A stretch of 64,000 nt of DNA from Squalus acanthias (lineage: Eukaryota), in contig CM059430.1 of NCBI GenBank assembly GCA_030390025.1, positions 67,704,001 through 67,768,000 of the forward strand, given 5' to 3'. A program made the translations under genes and the position numbers. The notes beneath the pieces were generated by a model, which saw only the letters and a program-made list of their open reading frames with translations, was not told the DNA's origin and did no database searches. This document shows positions 7,685 through 21,172 of the stretch, piece by piece; positions within the stretch are counted from its first letter, which is position 1, and every line of letters starts with the position of its first letter.

Positions 7685-10570
7685 TTTTATTCTTTCACGG
7701 AATGTGGTTGTTGTTTACTGGGCGAGCATTTATTGCCTATCCCTAGTTGTCCTTGAGAAGGGGGTGGTGGGCCGCCTTCTAGAACCGCTGCAGTCCGTGT
7801 GGTGAAGGTACTCCCACAGTGCTGATAGAGGTGGAGTTCTAGGATTTTGACCCAGTGATAATGAAAGAACTGCAAAATGTTTCCAAGTAAGGATGGTTTG
7901 TAATTTCGAAGGGAACGTAGAGGTGGTGGAGTTCCCATGCGTTTGCTGCCCTTGTCCTTCTAGTTGGTGGAGTTTGCGGTTTTGGGATATGCTGTCTAAG
8001 AAGCATTGGTGAGTTGCTGCAGTGGATTTTGTAGATGGTACACAATGCAGCAAAGGTGGAGGGAGTGAATGAGATGGTTCTGTGTGGGGTTTGGGCTGCT
8101 TTGTCCTGCATTGGTCGAGCTTCTTGAGTGTTGTTGGATCTGCACACATCTAGACAACTGGAGTGTATTCCATCACACTCCTAACTTGTGCCTTGCAGGT
8201 GGTGGAATGTATTTTAGTAGTCAGGAGGTGAAACAGTCGTGGCAGAATACCCAGCCACTAATTGGTCTTTTAGCCACAGTATTTGTGTGGCTTGTGCAGT
8301 TAAGTTTCTGGTCAATGGTGACCCCCAGGACGTTGATGCTGGGGGATTCGCTGAAGGTGATGCCATTGAAAATCAAGGGGAGGTGGTTAGCTTCTCCCTT
8401 GTTGGAGATGGTCATTGCCTGGCACATGTTTGGCGAGAATGTTACTTGCAACTTATCAGCGCAAACCTGAATTTTCTCCAGGTCTTGCTGCATGCTTGAT
8501 TATCTGAGGAATTGTGAATGAAACTGAAGACTGTGCAATCATCAGCGATCATCCTCACTTCTAACCTTATGATGGAGGAAAGGTCATTAATGAAGCAGCA
8601 GAAGATGCTTGGGCCTAGGACAGTGGCCTGAGAATCTACTGAGCGATGTTCGGGGGATGACATGATAGGCCTCCAACAACTACAACCATCTTCCCTTGTG
8701 CTAGGTATGACTCCAGCCAGTGGAGATTTCCCCCCTAATTTCTATTGACTTCAATTTTACTAGGGCTCCTTGTTGCCACACTCGGTCAAATGATGCCTTG
8801 ATGTCAAGAGATGTCACTCTCACCTCACCTCTGCAATTGAGCTCTTTTTTCCATGTTTGGACCAAGGCTGTAATGACTTGTGGAGCTAACTGATCCTGGT
8901 GTAACCCAAACTATGCATCAATGAGCAGGTTATTGGTAAGTAAGTGCCGCTTAATAGCACTGTCGGTGATCACATCCATCACTTTGCTGATGATTGAGAG
9001 AAGGCTGGTGGGGCGCTAATTGCTGGATTGGATTTGTCCTTCTTTATATGGGCAGGAAATATATGGGCAAATTTTCCCTTTGTCAGTGTTATAGCTGTAC
9101 CGGAACAGCTTGGTTAGAGGCGTTGCTAGTTCTGGAGCACAGGTCTTCAGCACTAAAGTCAGAATGTTGTCGTGGCCCACAGCCTTTGCTGTATCCAGTG
9201 CGCTCAGCCGTTTCTTGACATTCCGAGCAGTGAATTGAATTAGATAAAGACTGGCTTCTGTGATAGTGGGGACCTCAGGAGGAGGCCGATGTGAATCATC
9301 CACTCGGCACTTCTGGCTGAAGATGGTTGCAAATGCCTGAGCCTTGTCTGTTGAATTCATGTGCTGGGCTCTGCCATCATTGACGATAGGCATGTTCACG
9401 GAGCCTCCTCCTCCTGTTAGTTGATTAATTGTCCACCAACATTCACGACTGGATGTAGCAGGACTGCAGAGCTTTGATCAGATCCGTTGATTGTGGAATC
9501 AGTTAGCGCTACCTATAGCACGCTGCTTCCGCTGTTTAGTATGCATCTAGTCCTGTGATGCAGCTTCCCCAGGTTTGCACCTCATTTTAGGTAAGCCTGG
9601 TGCTGCTCCTGGCATGCTCTTCAACGCTCCTCATTAAACCAGGACTCGTCCCTGGGCTTGATGGTATTGGTAGAGTGAGAGATATGCTGGCCATGAGGTT
9701 ACAGATTGTGATGAAATACAATTCTGCTGCTGCTGATGGCCCATAGGATTTCATGGCTGCCTAGTTTTGAGCTGCTGGATCTGTTCTGAATTTATCTCAT
9801 TTAGCACGATGATAGTGCCACACAACACGGTGGAAAGCGTCCTCGGTGTGAAGATGGGACTTCTTCTCCACAAGAACTGTGTGGTGGTCACTCCTACCAA
9901 TACATGGATAGATGCAGCTGCGACAGGTAGATTAGTGAAGACGAGGTCAAGTAGGTGTTTCCCTCGTGTTGGTTCTCTCACTACCTGCTGCAGGCCGAGA
10001 CTGGCAGTTATTTCCTTCAGGACTCGGCCAGCTCGGTCGGTAATGCTGTTACCGAGTCAATCTTGGTGATGGACTTTGAAGTCCCCCACCCTAAGTGCAT
10101 TTTGTGCCCTTGCTGCTCTTAGTCCGTCTTCCAAGTGATATTCAACATGGAGTGGCACTGATTCGTCAGCTGAGGGAGGCGGTAGATGGTAATCAGCAGG
10201 AAATTTCCTTGCCCATATTTGGCCTAGTTCCATGAGACTTCCTGGGGTCTGGAGCCAATGTTGAGAACTCCCAGGGCCACTCTCACCTGACTGTATACCT
10301 GTGTGCCTGCACCTCTCTGGGACAGGGCTGCCGGTGGGACAGGACATATGGTGATGGAGTAGTCCAGGATGTTGGCTGAAATGTATGATTCTGTGAGTAT
10401 GACTATGTCAGGCTGTTGCTTGACTTGTCTGTAGGACAGATCTCCGAATTTTGATACAAGTCTCCATGTGTTCGTGAGGAGGACATTGTAGGGTTGATGG
10501 GGCTGTGTATGCCTTTTTCATGTGCGAATCCGATGCCTATGTCAAGGCTGGGTGGTCCATCTGGTTTTAT
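7685..10570 (-). mobile_element. Decayed non-LTR retrotransposon (CR1/L2 group), EN+RT
   Basis: Fragments GDFKVH, PTRGKHLLDLVFTN, LKTCAPELA.PL.KLF, VLGP..F.CFINDL and ADDCTV; 3' tail ends GAATAAAAAAA at about 7685. Confidence 0.85.
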
Positions 10571-10731
10571 TCTAATGAAGTGTATTATAAATGTACCATA
10601 ACTGGTGACTTTGGATAATCTGTGCCACAAGGTTTGGTTGGGAGTGTGAAGTTATTCGACAGTTCCGGTCCCTTTATTCAGAAGTTGTCTTACGTGAATT
10701 TGACTCTATCAACTGGAACTTCCATAAGCAT

Positions 10732-10925
10732 TGTGGTAACACAATACAGCTTCCTGTGACTCGAACTTTATTGCATCACTTCCTGTGATTAGTCCAGGAT
10801 AAATACTGGACTGAGCAGTTGGATCCTGGAGAGGCATAGAGTAAGACCTCTTTTGTATGTAGCACCTTTTTAGTTGATTAAAGCTTACCTTAAGTTCACC
10901 ACGCGTAAGGCTCATTCTTACGACA
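10732..10925 (+). repeat. 5' LTR
   Basis: TGTGGTAAC...CTTACGACA, identical to the 3' LTR; ATTAAA at 10877-10882. Confidence 0.97.
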
Positions 10926-11003
10926 ATTTAATCAACTTTGAAAAACTTCGCACTCAAACTTTTTGGACGAACTCGGAACTAAGGATCCAGGGAATCACCC
11001 ATC

Positions 11004-14000
11004 ATGGAAAACATCCTTAAACCATCGCGTCTTGACTTGGACCCAAACACCCCAGCAGCCGGTAAGGTGTGGAAACACTGGTATCGCACGTTTGACAATT
11101 TTCTCGAATATTGCAAGGCTGATGATGACACAAAGTTGCGGATACTCATCAACTGTGTCACTCCGAATGTATTTCAGTATGTTGAGGAATGGGGCAGTTA
11201 CGAGGAGGCAATTCGGACGCTTAAAAGACTATATACTAAGACACCGAATGAGGTCTATGCCAGACATCTACTAGCTACAGCCCAACAAGGGCCGGAGGAA
11301 TCCATTGATAAATTCCTCCAAGAGCTTCGCAGACTTAGTATGGACTGTAACTTTCAGGCGGCCTCAGCTGAGCTGTACCGTGAAGAAATGATCCGTGATG
11401 CTTTCATCTGCGGGCTTGCCTCCCCATTTATACGCCAGTGTCTACTGGAAAGTAAGACACTTGAGCTTCAGAGAGCTTATGACATGGCTTGCTCTCTAGA
11501 TCTGGCAATAAGAAATGCAGACCTTTATACAGTGCCCAGACCTCGGTCTGCTGCCTTAACTACAGTCAGGCAATTTAAGAGGCCACAGGTGAACACTATT
11601 AGGGAGGACTTTATCCCTGACGATCAATCTGATGACTTCACTGATGAAGAGGATGATGACCCCACTGTGGCAGCCTCTTGGCAATCTAAGAAATGCTTCT
11701 TTTGTGGTGATGAGTTTCACCCTCGGAAATTCTGCCCTGCTCGCAATGCGTTTTGCAGTCATTGCAACAAAAAGGGTCATTTTGCAAAGGTTTGCCTATC
11801 AAGAGCCTCTACGAGGGCTTATCAAGCTAAGTCCTACCGAACTGCCCCGGTAAGGGCCTATCAAGATGTTCCGGCTAAAATCTACCGTGCTTCCTCTCGG
11901 GTTTTCTCTCGAAGAAACACACCTAGAGTTTCAGCCACTCTTTGTGCAACGACACCAATTACAGCTGCTTGTCCTCAGAACCTATTCCATGCAGCTACAA
12001 AAGCATCAATTAATGGACATACTTTAGATGCCTTAATTGACTCAGGTAGCACTGATAGTTTCATTAGGGAACAGATTGTTGCAGAGTTGAAGCTACATGT
12101 TTTCCCATCGGACCAGGCAATTGCGATGGCTCAGTCATCACTTAATACCAGAATTTCTGGCTTTTCTATGGTTGAAATAACACTTAATGGTCACAGGTAT
12201 CCCTCCACCTGGCTTTCGGTGCTCAAGGACTTATGTAGTGATCTTATCGTAGGGCTGGATTTTCAAAAGCAGCATAAGAAGCTCACCATTGAGTTCAGCG
12301 GATCCAAACCTGAACTCACTATTTCTAATATACGACCTCGATTACCGTTCTGTGCATTGTCAGCAGCTTCACTGGATGAACCCTCACTGTTTACCAGTAT
12401 CCCTCCTCGATGCAAACCGATTATAACAAAGTCACGACGTTTCAGTCAGGAAGACCAGTCTTTTATTGCGGCTGAGATTTCTCGGCTTTTAGCAGAGGAT
12501 ATCATCGAGCCTTGTTCGTCGCCATGGCGCGCCCAGGTCGTTATTGTTAAGAACCATCTACAACCTCACAAGAAACGGCTGTGCATTGACTATTCACAGA
12601 CCATCAATCAATATACGGACTTGGACGCATACCCATTGCCGCGCATCGATGATATGGTTAATAAACTGGCTGAGTACACGGTGTTCTCAACATATGATCT
12701 GAAAAGTGCCTATCATCAGGTACCCTTGACGGTCTCAGACAAGCAGTATACGGCCTTTGAAGCCAATGGACGGCTGTATCAATTTCGTCGCCTCCCCTTT
12801 GGGGTCACTAATGGAGTGGCTGTCTTCCAGCGAGCAATGGATGACCTGGTCAAACAGGAAGACTTGAACGATACGTTTCCTTATCTGGACAATATTACTG
12901 TCGCAGGTCGCAATCAGCGGGAACATGACGCCAATCTCCAACGATTTTGGGATGCACTCCAGCACCGTAATTTGACATTAAATGCGGCTAAATCCATTGA
13001 GTCACAACCAACCATCAACATCCTTGGCTATTGTGTGGGCAATGGCATCATTAAACCTGACCCTGAAAGGCTTCGCCCACTCCAAGAGCTCCCGCCACCT
13101 AAGAATCCGGCCTCCTTGCACCGGGCCCTCGGCCTGTTTGCATACTATGCTAAATGGATTCCTAACTTCTCGGACCGAATCCAACCTCTACTGAAGGCCA
13201 GCACATTCCCATTAGAGACAGCGGCTGTTGCAGCCTTTAACCTCCTGAAAAAACAGTTGGAGAAAGCGGCTCTTCACTCCATCGATGAGAGTCTTCCTTT
13301 TGTTGTTGAGTGTGATGCCTCGGAGGTGGCGATCTCGGCCACTCTGAATCAGGAAGGTCGTCCGGTGGCATTTTTGTCCAGGACTTTTCAAGGGGCTGAG
13401 CTACATTATCCTCCAGTCGAGAAAGAAGCTACAGCCATCATAGAGGCAGTACGGAAGTGGACTCATCTCCTAGCTCGCCAGCACTTTACCTTAATCACGG
13501 ACCAGCGATCGGTCGCCTTCATGCTCGATAATCGAAAACGGACCAAAATTAAAAATAATAAAATCCAGCTTTGGCGGCTGGAATTGGCCTCTTTTGGTTA
13601 CACCATCCACTATCGACCTGGCAAGGAGAATGTGGCTCTGGATACCCTCACACGAGCATTCTGCTCCGCCATGGCACCCTCTACGCTCGTAGACATCCAT
13701 GATGGGTTGTGTCATCCGGGCGTTACTCGCATGCTACAATTCGTGCGGTCCCGAAATCTCCCATTCTCTACCGGGGATGTAAAGAAGATGTGCTCGGACT
13801 GCAGAGTCTGTGCGGAATTGAAACCTCAGTTTTTCCGCCCCTCGGGTGGTATACTCATACATGCGACCCAGCCAATGCAACGACTTAGCATCGATTTTAA
13901 GGGGCCGTTGCCCTCTTCAACTCGCAACACTTATGTGTTGACCATGGTCGATGAGTATTCCCGTTTTCCGTTTGCCTTTCCCTGCCCCAATATGCTGACG

Positions 14001-14960
14001 ACCACGGTTATCAGCTGCCTTGAGCAGGTATTTGCTTTCTGTGGCATGGCATCCTATGTTCATTCGGATCGGGGCCCTTCTTTTATGTCAGGAGAACTCA
14101 AGGCCTATCTCTCGGAACGGTGTATTGCTGCCAGCAGAACGATGCCTTATCATCCGGTTGGGAATGGGCAAGTCGAGCGTTTTAACGCTATCATCTGGAA
14201 TGCGGTACGTCTGGCTTTGAGATCTCGGGGCCTACCCAACCAGCAATGGGAAGCAGTACTTCCAGACGCATTACACTCCACACGGTCCCTCCTTTCGACC
14301 GCCACAAATACGACGCCTCATGAACGGTTCTTCCGATTTCAGCGTCGCTCATCCTATGGGATATCTCTCCCGTCGTGGCTGACTGCACCGGGACCAGTGC
14401 TACTCCGAAGATATGTCCGGGCGTCTAAGAATGACCCCCTGGTAGATGAGGTTGAGCTCACTGACGTCAACCCTACCTACGCCTATATTCGGTATCCTGA
14501 CGGTCGGGAATCTACCGTGTCATTGCGGGATCTGGCTCCCTGCCCGCCGAAACATAGAGGGACACCAGGGGATGATATTGTACCAGGCACATCTCTGGGC
14601 TCGCCAGGTGCCTCTCATCACGATCTGGATCTGACGCCGGCTGGTACCTCACTCCAGCGTGCCGACCTGGGGCAGACTGACTATGAGCCCGTCGGGGCTC
14701 GCACGCGCAGCCACGATCCACCCCGTACCATACGCTCGGAAATGGATCTGCCACAGCCCTGCCCGACACCCGTTCGGGCACCAGTACACAGTCAGGATCG
14801 TCCTGACCCCTCACAGAGCGGGCTGGATCACTCGGACTCTGGTCCACGGCCCGCAGCGGGTAAACGGGCTAGGGGCCCTCTACCGCTACGAGAACCCAAA
14901 CGGGTGCGGCTCTCCCTCGTCCGGCGGCTACGAAATGGAGGGAGCATCGCGGCCTCCTAA
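11004..14960 (+). CDS. Gag-Pol polyprotein (two CCHC knuckles, protease, RT, RNase H, integrase), 1318 aa
   Basis: CFFCGDEFHPRKFC and CSHCNKKGHFAKVC knuckles; LIDSGS; DLKSAYHQ, LPFG and YLDN; CDAS, EKEA, TDQR; H..HPG..CRVC; IDFKG, HSDRG, GQVER. Gypsy domain order. Confidence 0.96.
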   Translation: MENILKPSRLDLDPNTPAAGKVWKHWYRTFDNFLEYCKADDDTKLRILINCVTPNVFQYVEEWGSYEEAIRTLKRLYTKTPNEVYARHLLATAQQGPEESIDKFLQELRRLSMDCNFQAASAELYREEMIRDAFICGLASPFIRQCLLESKTLELQRAYDMACSLDLAIRNADLYTVPRPRSAALTTVRQFKRPQVNTIREDFIPDDQSDDFTDEEDDDPTVAASWQSKKCFFCGDEFHPRKFCPARNAFCSHCNKKGHFAKVCLSRASTRAYQAKSYRTAPVRAYQDVPAKIYRASSRVFSRRNTPRVSATLCATTPITAACPQNLFHAATKASINGHTLDALIDSGSTDSFIREQIVAELKLHVFPSDQAIAMAQSSLNTRISGFSMVEITLNGHRYPSTWLSVLKDLCSDLIVGLDFQKQHKKLTIEFSGSKPELTISNIRPRLPFCALSAASLDEPSLFTSIPPRCKPIITKSRRFSQEDQSFIAAEISRLLAEDIIEPCSSPWRAQVVIVKNHLQPHKKRLCIDYSQTINQYTDLDAYPLPRIDDMVNKLAEYTVFSTYDLKSAYHQVPLTVSDKQYTAFEANGRLYQFRRLPFGVTNGVAVFQRAMDDLVKQEDLNDTFPYLDNITVAGRNQREHDANLQRFWDALQHRNLTLNAAKSIESQPTINILGYCVGNGIIKPDPERLRPLQELPPPKNPASLHRALGLFAYYAKWIPNFSDRIQPLLKASTFPLETAAVAAFNLLKKQLEKAALHSIDESLPFVVECDASEVAISATLNQEGRPVAFLSRTFQGAELHYPPVEKEATAIIEAVRKWTHLLARQHFTLITDQRSVAFMLDNRKRTKIKNNKIQLWRLELASFGYTIHYRPGKENVALDTLTRAFCSAMAPSTLVDIHDGLCHPGVTRMLQFVRSRNLPFSTGDVKKMCSDCRVCAELKPQFFRPSGGILIHATQPMQRLSIDFKGPLPSSTRNTYVLTMVDEYSRFPFAFPCPNMLTTTVISCLEQVFAFCGMASYVHSDRGPSFMSGELKAYLSERCIAASRTMPYHPVGNGQVERFNAIIWNAVRLALRSRGLPNQQWEAVLPDALHSTRSLLSTATNTTPHERFFRFQRRSSYGISLPSWLTAPGPVLLRRYVRASKNDPLVDEVELTDVNPTYAYIRYPDGRESTVSLRDLAPCPPKHRGTPGDDIVPGTSLGSPGASHHDLDLTPAGTSLQRADLGQTDYEPVGARTRSHDPPRTIRSEMDLPQPCPTPVRAPVHSQDRPDPSQSGLDHSDSGPRPAAGKRARGPLPLREPKRVRLSLVRRLRNGGSIAAS

Positions 14961-14978
14961 TCTTTTGAGGGGGGAGAA

Positions 14979-15172
14979 TGTGGTAACACAATACAGCTTC
15001 CTGTGACTCGAACTTTATTGCATCACTTCCTGTGATTAGTCCAGGATAAATACTGGACTGAGCAGTTGGATCCTGGAGAGGCATAGAGTAAGACCTCTTT
15101 TGTATGTAGCACCTTTTTAGTTGATTAAAGCTTACCTTAAGTTCACCACGCGTAAGGCTCATTCTTACGACA
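14979..15172 (+). repeat. 3' LTR
   Basis: Preceded by PPT GAGGGGGGAGAA; identical to the 5' LTR. Confidence 0.97.
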
Positions 15173-17741
15173 AGCATGACTTCGATTAATGACTGGAAGA
15201 AGGCAGCAGTATATGAAAACAAAACACAAAATGTTCCGTTTTTAATCAAATAAATTATTATCTCTATTGCATTGTGTTTTTTTATTTCAAAGAAATAGCA
15301 TCATGTCTATATCATTAAACACTAGCGGTCTCTCTGTGGCGTTGCTCATAGATTCAGAGATTCTCGAAGAAAAGGAGTCTAATGGAAGTGTTGCATTTTT
15401 AGAGTGGAATATGATTAAGTATCATTGAGGTAGCCCTGGAATCTGGGAGAATTCGGAATATTAGGCTTTTAAAGTATTCGGATGGGGTCTAGCGATATTT
15501 CCAGGGTCTCGGGGTCTGACAGCAATGAGAGTGAGCTCAAGCATTCTGAAAACACTAGAGAGCTTCTGGCAATACTGGTGCAAGACCTGTCATAATGTGA
15601 GTACTGTGAGATGGATTTTGTGGTTCACTCAAGGTCTGGCAGCAAAGGCGTCAGTTATACGATCAGGAAGCATTGCAAATGTGGTTGAAGCGTTTGGGAG
15701 CACTGAAAGAGGATCTCCACATATTAAGACTGAGATAATGACAAATGCAATGCTTGGTTTACAGAACTAAAACTAGAAATTGAGATTGGACGGTATCTAC
15801 ACCTCGGACTGATATTGACCAGGAGTGCGTCCACAGCCAATGACTCAAGCATGGTCGTTGGAGATGGAGCTCAGAGAGGAACCAACACACAGTGGACCAA
15901 CCACTACCAGGACTATATATTGGGGACAGAAAGCTTAGAAACTGTGCACTGAATGAAACCATACCAATGACTTACCAGATCCCGGAAGGGTCAGGAGTTT
16001 GTATTCAATGTTTATGTATTTGTCGGGAACCTACACTTGCAGAGGCGCGGCATATATATTTTTGGGGATGGTCTATTGATAACCACATCCCAGATATAAT
16101 GAAACCTGGGAAAATGAGAGAGAAAGAAGTACAACGAATTCCCCATTGGAGAAACAGCACTGGCATCAAGAACACTGAGGAAATATATTGGCCCCGGTTT
16201 TGGGAGCACAACGAGTGTTATTTCACGTGTTTATGTTGGACATCCTGGAGAGATGTATTTTGGACATCTTGGGAATTTAAGGGTTAACAGTCGATCTTCA
16301 TTGTATCTTGGATTAACAGGCTTTCCAATATATAAAGAGGGTGACTTTGAAGTGTTGTGAGGAGAATGCTTGACTTGTCTTCTGATATGTAAAGTGTTTG
16401 TGTAAGGAAATATGTGTAGGTAATAAAATGTAACTTTAGTTTGAGGTTAATAAAAAGGGGTAGCGAGCCCATTTGCTAAAGTTAGCAGTAGGTAAAGGAA
16501 GCCTTGTTTAAGGGGAGTGGTTTTGAAGTAAACATTTGCAAATTGTTTACATGGATATTCTGTTTTCAAATGATTTGGGAAATAGATACATCATTTTGAC
16601 ATTTTCCTTTGATGTAGTCAACATATTGTGTATGAAGAATCATGGTTTTCAACAGTACCTCAAAGTATGCTCGAAAGATACAGAAACCAGGAAAAAGTCA
16701 CTCTCTATATATAGTTAAAAGCCGATCACCTTTTACTGTGTATCAATGAAGTCTGTTCCATATACTCCACTACAAAGTATGGTGCTTACTCGAAACTATT
16801 GTTGTGAACCAGAGGAGAAAGGAGGTTGAATGCTAACAGTTTACTAAGGTCAGGAGTCAATGGCCAGTGGAATGCCTCCCACATCAATGGGGTTTGCCAC
16901 TTACACAGTCGAACGGACGGGGATAACAGTGATGCTTGCACGGCCTCCATGCCACTGTGTCAGTGCTTTCACTCAAAGTTCAGTCATTGCTGAAATATCA
17001 ACCAGTCCATCAAAATAGTTAAATTACACGTTAATAATCCGGAGCGAGCTGCACTTATGCGGGAGGGTGGAGATGACTGGTCCTTCCGTTGCAGAATCAG
17101 AACTATGTTTTGCAACCTCAAGGTAACCTAGTTAGCTGCAAGATGATTGAAGCTAGACAGGGTGGAGGCAATTAGGATGTGTACCATACCTCATTAACTG
17201 TTAGATGGCCTTCGATGGATATAATTTCGTCAACTGTTATCAACTTATCATTTGCATGCTTTGACATTTGGCTAGAGGGAAGTCACACCTAATTACAGGC
17301 AAACAACGACACATAGTCTGTGTAAGAGAATGGTTGGTTAAAACTAGATAGGGTGCAGCCAATGCGTTTCGGCTGATAATAATCAAGGCAGCATTTATTT
17401 GCAGCGGCAGATTTCTGATTGTTCCCCTTTGGAGGACAAGACCATAGTTCTGATTGTACCCCTTGGTAGATTGTCTGAAATGTGTAATTTTATTCTGCCT
17501 GCTGTAAACAACCCTGCAATGAGAAATTTGCTCCTGTCTTGCCAGACTACAGAACGTGGAAGTATAGTTAACTTTATGAAGATCCTCTGTTAATAATTTT
17601 CGGCAATTGTACTTATAGTTGTCCTTGGCTGGTAAAATATAAGTCTTTATACTGTAATAAGTGAGTAGTTAATTCTTTGGTGTTTTATGGGGTGTTTTTT
17701 TTCTTTCTGGAAGTGATAAAAAAAAATTCTGAATGACTGTT

Positions 17742-17897
17742 CCGTGTGTGTGGAGTCCGTGTGTGGAGAGTCCATGTATGGGGGGTCCGTGTAAGTGTGT
17801 TCCATGTGTGTGGCGTCCGGGTATGTGGGGGATCCATGTGTGTGTGTTTGTTCCATGTGTGTGGGGTCCATATGTGTGGGGATCATGTGTGTGGGGT
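17742..17897. repeat. Degenerate GTGTGTGG-type minisatellite
   Basis: Repeated ~15-bp CCATGTGTGTGGGG / CCGTGTGTGGAG units. Confidence 0.7.
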
Positions 17898-18144: not shown

Positions 18145-19712
18145 GAATCATAGAAAGTTACAGCACAGAAGAAGGCCATTTCGGTCCGTCGTGTCTGCGC
18201 CGGCCAACAAAGAGCTATCCATCCTAATCCCACTTCCCAGTTCTTGGTCCGTAGCCCTGCAGGTTACAGCATCCCAAATGCACATCCAAGTACTTTTTAA
18301 ATGTGATTAGGGTTTCTGCCTCTACCACCCTTTCAGGTAGTGAGTTCCAGACCCCCACAACCCCCTGGGCGAAGACATTTCACCTCAAATCCCTTCTAAA
18401 CCTTCCACCAATAACTTTAAATCTGCGCCCCCTAGTTTCTGACCCCACTGCCAAGGGAAATTGGTCCTTTCTATCCACTTTATCTATGCCCCTCATAATT
18501 ATATACACCTTAATAATGTCTCCCCTCAGCCTCCTCTGTTCCAAGGAAAACAGACCCAACCTATCCAATCTTTCCTCATAGCTAAGATTCTCTACTCCCG
18601 GCAACATCCTTGTAAATCTCCTCTGTACCCTCCCTAGTGCAATCACACCTTTCCTGTAATGTGGTGACCAGAACTGCACGCAGTACTCTAGCTGAGGCCT
18701 AACTAATGTTTTATCCAGTTGAAGCATAACCCCCCGACTCTTGTATTCTATGTAACGGCTCATAAAGGCAAGCATTCCGTATGCCTTCTTAACCACCTTA
18801 TCTACCTGGCCTGCTACCTTCAGGGATCTGTGGACATGCACTCCATGGTCCCTTAGTTCCTCTACTGTACTCAGTGTCCTACCATTTAATGTGCATTCCC
18901 TTTCCTTGTTAGCCCTCCCCAAATGCATTACCTCACACTTCTCCGGATTGAAATCCATTTGTCACTGTTCTGTCCACCTGACCAATTTATTGATATCTTC
19001 CTGCAGTCTACAGCTTCCTTCTTCAGAATCAACCACACAGCCGATTTTAGTATCATCTGCAAACTTCTTAATCATACCCCCTATATTCAAGTCTAGATCA
19101 TTGAGATATAGCACAAAAAGCAAGGGACCTAGTACTGAGCCCTGCGCAACTCCACTGGAAACAGACTTCCAGTCACAAAAACACCCTTCAAACATTACTC
19201 TCTGCTGCTTGTCTCCGAGCCAGTTTTGAATCCAACTTGCCACTTTGCCCTGGATGCCATGGGCTTTTAACTTCGTGTCCAGTCTGCCATGTGGAACCTT
19301 ATCAAAAGCCTTGCTAATGTCCATAAACACTACATCAAACGCACTACCCTCATCTACCCTCCTTGTTACCTCCTTAAAAAATCCAATCAAGTTTGTCAGA
19401 CACGACCTTCCCTCAACAAATCCATGCTGACTATACTTGATTAATTCGTGTCTTTCTAAATGAAGATTTATCCTGTCTTTCAGAATTCTTTCCAACAATT
19501 TTCCCACCACCGAGGTTAGGCTGACTGGTCTGTAATTACACCGTCTATCCTTTTCTCCCTTTTTAAACAAGGGCACCACATTAGCAGTCCTCCAGTCTCC
19601 CGGTACCACACCTGAAGCCAGAGAGGATTGAAAAATGATGGTCAGGGCCTCTGCTATTTCCTCTTTTGTTTCGCTTAATAGCGTGGGATACATTTCATCC
19701 GGGCCTGGGGAT
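18145..19712 (-). mobile_element. CR1 LINE, 5'-truncated (RT and 3' end), nested
   Basis: ORFs 18962-19693 and 18380-18958: YRPVSLTS, QHGF, KAFDKVPH, QGSVLGP, FADDTK. Confidence 0.92.
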
Positions 19713-19814
19713 TTACATCCATACAGCTGAGGCTCTCTGGGTTCAAGTATACCAAGCTCACGGGCAGGGACTATTTATCAGTAATTGTTATAGTCCCCCG
19801 GGTCAGACACCTGA

Positions 19815-21172
19815 ACATAAGATAATAAGAACAGAAAAACATAAAAAATAGAAGCAGGAATAGGGCACTTGGCCCCTCAAGCCTGCTCCGCCATTCAATA
19901 AGATCATGGCTGATCTTGGGCCCAAAGCCACTTCCCCGCCCACTCCCCATAACCCTTCACTCACTTATCTTGTAAAATTTTGTCTATCTCCACCTTAAAC
20001 GTATTTAATGACCCAGCCTCCACACCTATCTGGGGAAGAGAATTCCACAGATTTACGACCCTCTGAGAGAAGAAATTCCTCCTCATTTCAGCTCTAAAAG
20101 GGCTACCCTTTATTCTAAATCTGTACCCCCGCGTTCTAGATTTCCCCACGAGGGGAAACATCCTCTCTGCATCTAACTTGGCGTGCCCCCTCAGTATCTT
20201 ATATTTTTCAATAAGATCACCTCTCATTCTTCTAAATTCCAATGAGTATAGGCCCAGCCTGCTCAACCTTTCCTCATAAGTCAACCTCCTCATCTCTGGA
20301 ATTAACCTAGTGAATCGTCACTGAACTGATTCCAATGCAAGTATATCCTTCCTTAAATAAGGAGACCAAACCTGTACGCAGTTCTCAAGGTGTGGTCTCA
20401 TCAATACCCTGTACAGTTGTACTAGGACTTCCCTGCTTTTATACTCCAACCCCTTTGAAATAAAGGCCAACATTCCATTTACCTTTTTGATTACTTGCTG
20501 TACCTGCATGCTAACCTTTTGTGTTTCATGCACAAGGACCCCCAGGTCCCTCTCAACTGTAGCATTTTGTAATCTCTCTCCATTTAAATAATAATTAGTT
20601 TTTTTAGTTTTCCTGCCAAAGTGTATAACCTCACACTTTCCCACATTATACTCCATCTGCCAAATGTTTGCCCACTCACTTAGCCTGTCTATATCCCTTT
20701 GCAGGTTCTTTGAGTCCTCTGCAGAACTTGCTTTCCCAACCATGTTTGTATCATCCGCAAACTTGGTTACATTAAACTCGGTCCCTTCATCCAAATCATT
20801 AAAGTAGATTGTAAATAGTTGAAGCCCCAGCACCGATCCCTGTGGCACCCCACTAGTTACAGTTTGCCAAACGGAAAATGACCCATTCATCCCGACTCTC
20901 TGCTTTCTGTTAGTTAGCCAATACTCTATACATGTTAATATATTAACCCCAATTCCGTGAGCTCTTATCTTATGCAGTAACCTTTTATGTGGCACCTTAT
21001 CCAATGTCTTCTGGAAATCTAAATACACCACATCCACTGGTTCACTTTTGTCCACGCTGCTCGTTACATCCTCAAAGAACTCCAGCAAGTTTGTTAAACA
21101 TGATTTCCCTTCATAAAACCATGCTGACTCTGCTTGACTGCATTATGATTTTCCAAATGCCCTGCTACTGCT
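19815..21172 (-). mobile_element. CR1 LINE, 5'-truncated, nested
   Basis: ORFs 20318-21088 and 19961-20293 with [14 protein letters not shown] and FFSQRVVNLWN. Confidence 0.92.

Follow-up and report, generated by a model that had tools for sequence, protein, structure and literature searches.

How is reverse transcription primed in a retrotransposon whose 5' LTR is followed, in place of the TGG of a tRNA primer-binding site, by a sequence complementary to the LTR itself? The question is raised by an element in the 64,000 nucleotides of Squalus acanthias DNA analysed here, which we call the window (GCA_030390025.1, contig CM059430.1, positions 67,704,001 to 67,768,000 of the forward strand). 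The element is complete at 10732-15172 of the window (4.4 kb), and its two LTRs of 194 bp are identical. It is a Ty3/Gypsy LTR retrotransposon: namely, the LTRs run TG...CA, a target-site duplication and a polypurine tract are present, and the domain order is gag-PR-RT-RNase H-IN as in Ty3/Gypsy, with env absent from the element. Its features are as follows.

10727..10731, + strand: target-site duplication AGCAT, left copy (from the sequence)
10732..10925, + strand: 5' LTR, 194 bp, TG...CA (from identity with the 3' LTR)
10872..10882, + strand: candidate self-primer segment AGTTGATTAAA and predicted start of R (complement of 10927-10937; covaries in relatives)
10877..10882, + strand: ATTAAA, likely poly(A) signal, which is the 3' half of the primer segment (sole such hexamer in the LTR)
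10881..10882, + strand: tentative RNA cut site between 10881 and 10882 (junction copies resume at 10882; weakened by controls)
10883..10925, + strand: remaining R and U5, with a short stem predicted directly 3' of the primer segment (folding; RCCT...AGGY recurrence)
10926..10937, + strand: one-base spacer (A, 10926) and primer-binding site TTTAATCAACT, with no TGG
11004..14960, + strand: gag-pol in a single frame of 1318 aa, with gag, protease, RT, RNase H and integrase (Pfam)
11694..11795, + strand: twin CCHC zinc knuckles of gag (motif)
14967..14978, + strand: polypurine tract, ending AA, before the 3' LTR (from the sequence)
14979..15172, + strand: 3' LTR (from identity with the 5' LTR)
15173..15177, + strand: target-site duplication AGCAT, right copy (from the sequence)

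The twin zinc knuckles described for the gag in an earlier, sequence-only reading are present, each as C-X2-C-X4-H-X4-C, and its remark that no chromodomain is visible agrees with a Pfam search of the gag-pol frame, in which neither a chromodomain nor SH3_Tf2-1 was among the 10 matches at E<=0.1. The gag falls in generic CCHC/retrotransposon gag clusters of the ESM Atlas, and the best solved relative of the RT is Ty3 RT. In its own genome the family is young and abundant; namely, a 369-base query gave 848 candidates in 3.7 Gb, with 40 out of 40 scored being ~100% identical, and an exact LTR 24-mer, which matches every LTR and informs on copy count only, occurs 3,932 times. A second family was also found in this genome at 82% RT-RNase H identity (hereafter, family 2).

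Several other repeats were noted in and beyond the window. Broken LINE-like (RT/endonuclease) frames, so labelled from the look of their translations, flank the element at 9016-10407 and 18380-21142, and a GT-rich tandem repeat with a 15-base period lies at 17729-17896. At one locus (L134, G000:C1:565000-574999) the element is repeated in tandem with a period of 4,247 bp and shared LTRs, an arrangement in which read-through would place U3 before the primer segment. Also observed were LTR-only insertions of palindromic form, having either two U3-type ends or three pieces of LTR (L140, L284/L285), tiny TRIM-resembling elements having 64-bp U3-less LTRs and target duplications (L167/L168, with a 232-bp unit, and L165), and, in the own genome, retrovirus-like elements with a second RNase H domain and a long frame past the integrase (L141-L145).

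The sequence after the 5' LTR had been read as an A plus an 11-mer instead of TGG, and these coordinates proved exact. Indeed, TTTAATCAACT (10927-10937) is the exact reverse complement of AGTTGATTAAA (10872-10882) inside the LTR, and the 11 bp are bounded by a mismatch at each end. Pairing of at least 11 bp arose in 11 of 20,000 dinucleotide shuffles of the LTR and at 12 of 20,000 random window positions; the complement claimed within the LTR is thus confirmed and lies beyond chance in both nulls. As had also been stated, the LTR arm contains ATTAAA (10877-10882), which is the only AATAAA/ATTAAA hexamer of the LTR and has two TGTA motifs upstream. Both pairing arms were unchanged in 30 of 30 sister copies, and in silico folding of the RNA 10872-10945 gave pair probabilities of 0.43-1.0. 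The intervening U5, for which a CTTAC/GTAAG stem had been proposed, is predicted to fold in rough agreement with that proposal, but not in the form described: two hairpins (10883-10895 and 10903-10921) are predicted.

A TGG site 2-6 bases past the LTR was found in other Gypsy elements of the own genome (5 of 20 stretches gave such an LTR pair). When the primer site was compared with host tRNA, the best match was 4 nt in the two genes compared (63 of ~369,000 candidates were scored, and the 12 loci scanned were all Lys or Cys). A search of Rfam gave one weak match (E 0.66), which was taken as chance. With regard to a start of the RNA, TTAGTT at 10872 is presumably initiator-like by the usual consensus, and TATA-like words lie at -73 from 10872 here and at -92 in family 2, with none at -30. 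In U3, inverted repeats at 10786-10829 flank the TATA-like ATAAAT, 73 bases before 10872, and two misbuilt copies (L182, L185) turn back within this region. Among the listed contigs of seven sequencing runs, which are not recorded as RNA, neither transcript starts nor loose poly(A) ends were seen, a result that weighs in neither direction. In these contigs (runs X2-X7), a sister subfamily diverges in U3 up to ~10871 and keeps the primer segment.

If the pairing matters to the element, it would be expected to recur in relatives. An RT alignment gave 89 loci, namely the best 80 of 268 metagenome loci and 9 MAG loci (those of L111-L119 are Gypsy elements of animal type from contigs deposited as bacterial MAGs, where host contamination is probable); a gag match was missing in 46 and upstream DNA was too short in 5, leaving 38 testable. 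For each, we took the best inverted repeat anywhere within 340 bases around the gag start, and stretches inside gag served as controls. Pairing of 11-18 bp was found in 29 of the 38 relatives and in 0 of 38 controls, where the maximum was 9. The nine negatives pair over 7-9 bp, and all nine have stop codons in RT-RNase H, a feature checked in the negatives alone; in two of them (L064, L092) the same primer site is present with mismatches.

The two arms also change together. For this comparison we used 22 rows: the positives minus nine near-duplicates, plus the window element and family 2. These families were preselected for pairing, so that the unbiased figure is 29/38, while the register was unselected. 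In all 22 families, the site is preceded by CA and one base (CAA 18, CAT 2, CAG 2), and 16 different 11-mers occur. Over the inner 11 pairs, 241 of 242 cells are paired (99.6%) vs 70.9% with swapped partners, and 8 of these 11 pairs vary on both sides, i.e., by compensatory change. Both-side changes over 16 pairs amount to 74 cells vs 21.2 in shuffles (0/500), and slid controls pair at 30-51% vs 92% in the true register. Pairs 12-16 are paired in 72% vs 37% when swapped, which leaves the outer edge unfixed. The conserved, covarying pairing of the two 11-mers that the sequence-only reading had called for was hence found in relatives. Since the 11-mers differ by family with compensatory change, no single tRNA fits; since the site begins where a primer must end and tracks the element's own LTR, priming by its own RNA is very likely. 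As for the stem after the LTR arm, AGGY was found in 13 of 15 loops starting RCCT (2.65 expected), and the inner stem was no longer than in shuffles (4.4 vs 4.1).

These results bear on a reading in which the inverted repeat has no RNA role and arises by chance or as a DNA-level by-product, for example of template switching. The segment is AT-rich, the pairing is missing in 9 of 38 loci, and copying between the arms could keep a match without selection. Set against this are the rarity of such pairing in the nulls (11-12/20,000), the retention of the register down to ~41% RT identity, the lack of any visible alternative primer site, and the stop codons of the nine negatives. We regard this reading as highly improbable, because it is largely refuted by the covariation.

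Somewhat less remote, and still improbable, is that the duplex only masks the 5' LTR's poly(A) signal, or serves as another RNA switch, while a host RNA such as a tRNA fragment acts as the primer. AATAAA or ATTAAA ends the LTR arm in 13 of 22 families and the pairing partner exists only after the 5' LTR, both as this reading would have it; furthermore, the host tRNA comparison spans two isotypes. The pairing is nonetheless kept in the 9 of 22 families without a canonical hexamer, a conserved host RNA cannot track 16 different 11-mers, and the site always lies one base past CA, where a primer must end. Also, fold-back copies, described below, reveal that DNA ends at the primer site.

The relatives further place the element within the Gypsy group. 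An RT-RNase H tree of 81 rows was built under LG+G4 with SH-aLRT support only and a midpoint root, leaving out chromoviruses as well as L057, L084 and L103, whose matches were shorter than 300 aa. In this tree, one clade (SH-aLRT 100) unites 34 rows, among them all 19 that self-pair, and stands apart from the K02A2.6-like/TGG group; members of the clade reach down to ~41% RT identity. The rows nearest to the window element are family 2 and a metagenome locus, followed by rows that include soft coral and prawn proteins, and elasmobranch proteins lie in a different subclade. The named relatives belong to crustaceans (shrimps, a mantis shrimp and a copepod), corals and anemones, a nematode, a tunicate and three elasmobranchs, with RT-RNase H identity of 59-70% for those of shrimps, corals, anemones, copepod and tunicate. 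The lineage had been called a vertebrate one, and this is not supported, as its relatives span many animal phyla and the elasmobranch ones belong to another subclade. The nearest named relatives, of crustacean and coral origin, reach ~70% identity and the elasmobranch ones 59-60%; horizontal transfer between marine animals is conceivable.

The element had also been described as Mag-like. We take K02A2.6-like, as a protein name, to be a label of Mag and twin CCHC to be a Mag trait. The twin CCHC part of the description stands, and with the Mag lineage (A/B/C clades, SURL) the element shares its compactness, short LTRs and twin CCHC gag. The RT placement does not: unlike Mag-type (K02A2.6-like) elements, it lies on a separate RT branch at 28-31% identity, and the TGG primer site, found in 5 copies of Mag-type elements of the own genome, is absent in it. 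Its description as a non-chromovirus is supported by domain content and by low similarity to Ty3, the tree being one without chromoviruses. Indeed, neither a chromodomain nor SH3_Tf2-1 was found among the precomputed domains of the 120 best relatives. The RT-RNase H of the window element scored 172 bits with Ty3, and that of a Mag-type element 192 bits; this lower score argues against special kinship with the Ty3 branch, a score being no phylogeny. The SH3_Tf2-1 matches of the own genome are retrovirus-like. A chromovirus search by three gag families gave no match, and one by protein gave pseudoscorpion proteins only; no relatives were found in viral contigs.

From the fixed register, the covariation and the fold-back copies, which together lend good support to the tRNA-independent priming first suggested for this element, we conclude that the element's own RNA very probably primes through this duplex and, with less assurance, that it probably does so with its 5' end, as in Tf1. 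The RNA would then start at or just before 10872, and its 5' segment would fold onto 10927-10937. A cut near the 10881/10882 boundary, made perhaps by the element's RNase H by analogy with Tf1, would yield a primer of 10 or 11 nt. RT would extend this primer back to 10882, and the resulting cDNA end, CA-AT, would mirror AA-TG at the polypurine side; in LTR positions, which are window coordinates minus 10731, a primer ending at 150 would leave a 2-base AT at the right end, matching the AA at the left. Only ~17-20 nt of R would remain for the first strand transfer, and transfer might hence sometimes be misplaced. At the 5' end of the RNA, ATTAAA would be sequestered in the duplex, while at the 3' end it would be free, and hiding of the poly(A) signal is likely as a side function. 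A primer of exactly 11 nt is less certain, for relatives pair over 11-18 nt and junction copies point to a cut one base sooner; the variable outer edge fits a longer primer equally.

The junctions in question are found in misbuilt copies. A search for changes just 5' of LTR position 152 gave 26 matches, half of them point variants and the other 13 junctions; the latter represent 8 insertions of three types, which resume at LTR position 151-155 (window 10882 on). In four insertions, U3 position ~21 is joined to AGCTT at 151-155 in both LTRs; in two, position ~132 is joined to AGC at 151-153, again in both LTRs; and in the remaining two, an inverted LTR end plus TT is joined to 151 exactly, without homology. 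The TT of these end-joins indicates that the left cDNA end carries two overhanging bases, AA. Target duplications are perfect at 5 bp in six of the eight, match at 4/5 in one and are ambiguous in one; with six perfect duplications, most of the eight were integrated as cDNA. Common descent is possible for the four copies of one deletion type, and RT slippage is another potential source of deletions in both LTRs. [quoted passage not shown]

Several controls limit how firmly a cut can be placed there. A gap search over resume positions 129-159 returned just the two homology-free end-joins. In the interval 146-160, all 8 non-local matches (of 24) resume at 151. A U3 control interval (100-114) gave 19 matches, comprising 10 small indels, 2 chance matches and 7 non-local ones at scattered positions, among which is an end-join at 115, while in a U5 control interval (160-174) the 4 real matches out of 5 all resume at 167-168. 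Family 2 did not replicate the cut position: two of its eight matches are non-local, and they resume 4-6 nt further 3'. Because the control intervals also hold junctions and family 2 failed to replicate, a cut near 10881/10882, with a primer of ~10 nt, is proposed only tentatively from these copies. One truncated copy starts at 140/141, which lends weak support because others start at 110 and 168. No substitution hotspot was found at position 150 (13 point variants, vs 13 at 149, 12 at 146 and 9 at 156), and the primer site is normal in three insertions whose two LTRs share one primer-segment substitution. At position 151 (window 10882) itself, 1 copy is non-A vs 9-13 at four other A positions. 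The second cluster of junctions (L272-L274, L276) is at window 10898-10899, after a CA 16 bases past ATTAAA; the cluster, at 167-168, may mark the poly(A) site and the R/U5 border. From the misbuilt copies one would predict that the RNA has a processed 5' end at 10882, that the cDNA ends in CA-AT, and that R meets U5 near 10898.

Another kind of misbuilt copy consists of the LTR, the A, the primer site and an inverted U3, and four such fold-back copies were found in all. In the own family, 3 of the 6 copies lacking the usual T after the primer site continue as inverted U3. The fourth is in family 2 (1 of 15 matches), has a perfect target duplication, and runs through the polypurine tract into internal sequence. 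Two of the three own-family fold-backs have LTRs of their own without most of U3 and the primer segment; put differently, fold-backs account for 2 of the 4 insertions that have U3-less LTRs, vs 1 among the normal copies (~3,900 LTR matches). A 3' LTR that leads into a leftover 11-nt copy of the primer and then host DNA was seen in 0 of 6 matches, and a search for a poly(A)-tailed retrocopy gave 0 matches.

It is these fold-backs that speak against the 5'-end version, for they carry long U3 stretches, as a primer from the 3' end predicts directly. The duplex and a similar cut would then be the same, but the primer would be the segment's copy at the RNA 3' end, whether in the same molecule or a co-packaged one, or else a long leader from an upstream start, in either case carrying U3. 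We consider this unlikely yet worth keeping in view. Besides the inverted U3 of the fold-backs, with polypurine tract and internal sequence in one of them, and their excess among insertions with U3-less LTRs, it has in its favour the TATA-like words, which are missing at -30 from 10872 and lie at -73 (-92 in family 2), and the pairing of 12-18 nt in most relatives, which is expected if the plus strand copies further into the primer. The same products, however, would result if a transfer went wrong and plus-strand strong-stop DNA then annealed to remaining U3 RNA. A matching primer-site change was found in 0 of the 3 copies with substitutions in both LTRs, a 3' cut removes the R that is needed as acceptor in the same molecule, and a single cut in the 5' leader accounts for the primer and also for strong-stop DNA ending at 151. 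More doubtful again is the fuller proposal in which the primer end is the poly(A) hexamer, the primer is drawn either from the genomic RNA at its far 3' end or from another RNA packaged alongside, and the tRNA-free priming of this animal-wide clade is independent of chromoviruses. If the primer were so drawn, one short sequence would toggle the end of transcription and the start of reverse transcription, and misbuilt genomic copies would record the cut to the base.

Priming by the 5' end, the form we prefer, has its closest parallel in Tf1, where, according to passages of PMC7175516, the PBS is paired with the first 11 bases and cleavage by RNase H falls between 11 and 12. The Tf1/sushi group are chromoviruses, and a 'pretzel' of three duplexes around the primer site is described in portions of PMC10085805. 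With Tf1/Tf2 of Schizosaccharomyces pombe, Tj1, Tosmo and Tf1/sushi elements, the present element has in common the Ty3/Gypsy domain order and no tRNA site. It also shares with the Tf1/sushi group a post-LTR site complementary to ~11 nt in the LTR and extra structure adjoining the duplex, as far as sections of PMC7175516, PMC10085805 and PMC4600332 describe these. Unlike that group, it has a twin CCHC gag and no chromodomain or SH3_Tf2-1, its primer segment overlaps the poly(A) hexamer, pairing in its clade spans 11-18 nt, and the hosts belong to many animal phyla; unlike the 'pretzel' of Tf1, the inner stems predicted here are local hairpins.

Self-priming has been proposed outside Tf1/sushi before, on the basis of predictions for TAR copia and Tcn1. 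Namely, for the TAR/Houba/Osr-1 copia elements and the Tcn1 chromoviruses of plants, it was predicted from an LTR-complementary site (in parts of PMC6317226); unlike the element examined here, those are copia or chromovirus and have plant hosts. The Cigr-1 and MolGy clades of molluscs and annelids are, like the present one, non-chromovirus Gypsy elements of marine animals (excerpts of PMC6238403, PMC8556966), and one Cigr-1/MolGy clade may be the present clade. Cigr-1 is listed under Mag in a portion of the supplement of PMC6238403, and the passages seen of the main texts of PMC6238403 and PMC8556966 mention neither PBS nor tRNA. Further background is given in parts of PMC5341516, PMC5371799, PMC2864245, PMC5445492, PMC6934838 and PMC2774666. 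We found no report of self-priming in animal Gypsy elements outside Tf1/sushi, in a literature search whose scope mostly excluded subscription papers and Repbase reports.

In conclusion, on current evidence, a clade-wide feature would work like the self-priming of Tf1, in elements that have no chromodomain and whose RT lies apart from Mag. Self-priming has been experimentally shown in the Tf1 group of fission yeast, is treated as a mark of Tf1/sushi, and is predicted in some plant elements. If self-priming, PBS-based annotation tools would miss the present clade. If true, self-priming in a chromodomain-less animal clade, which in this genome numbers near-identical LTRs by the thousand, would imply that tRNA-free priming either arose independently here or has a far more ancient ancestry, and would bear on whether tRNA priming arose late in the evolution of LTR elements, a view stated in part of PMC3601003.
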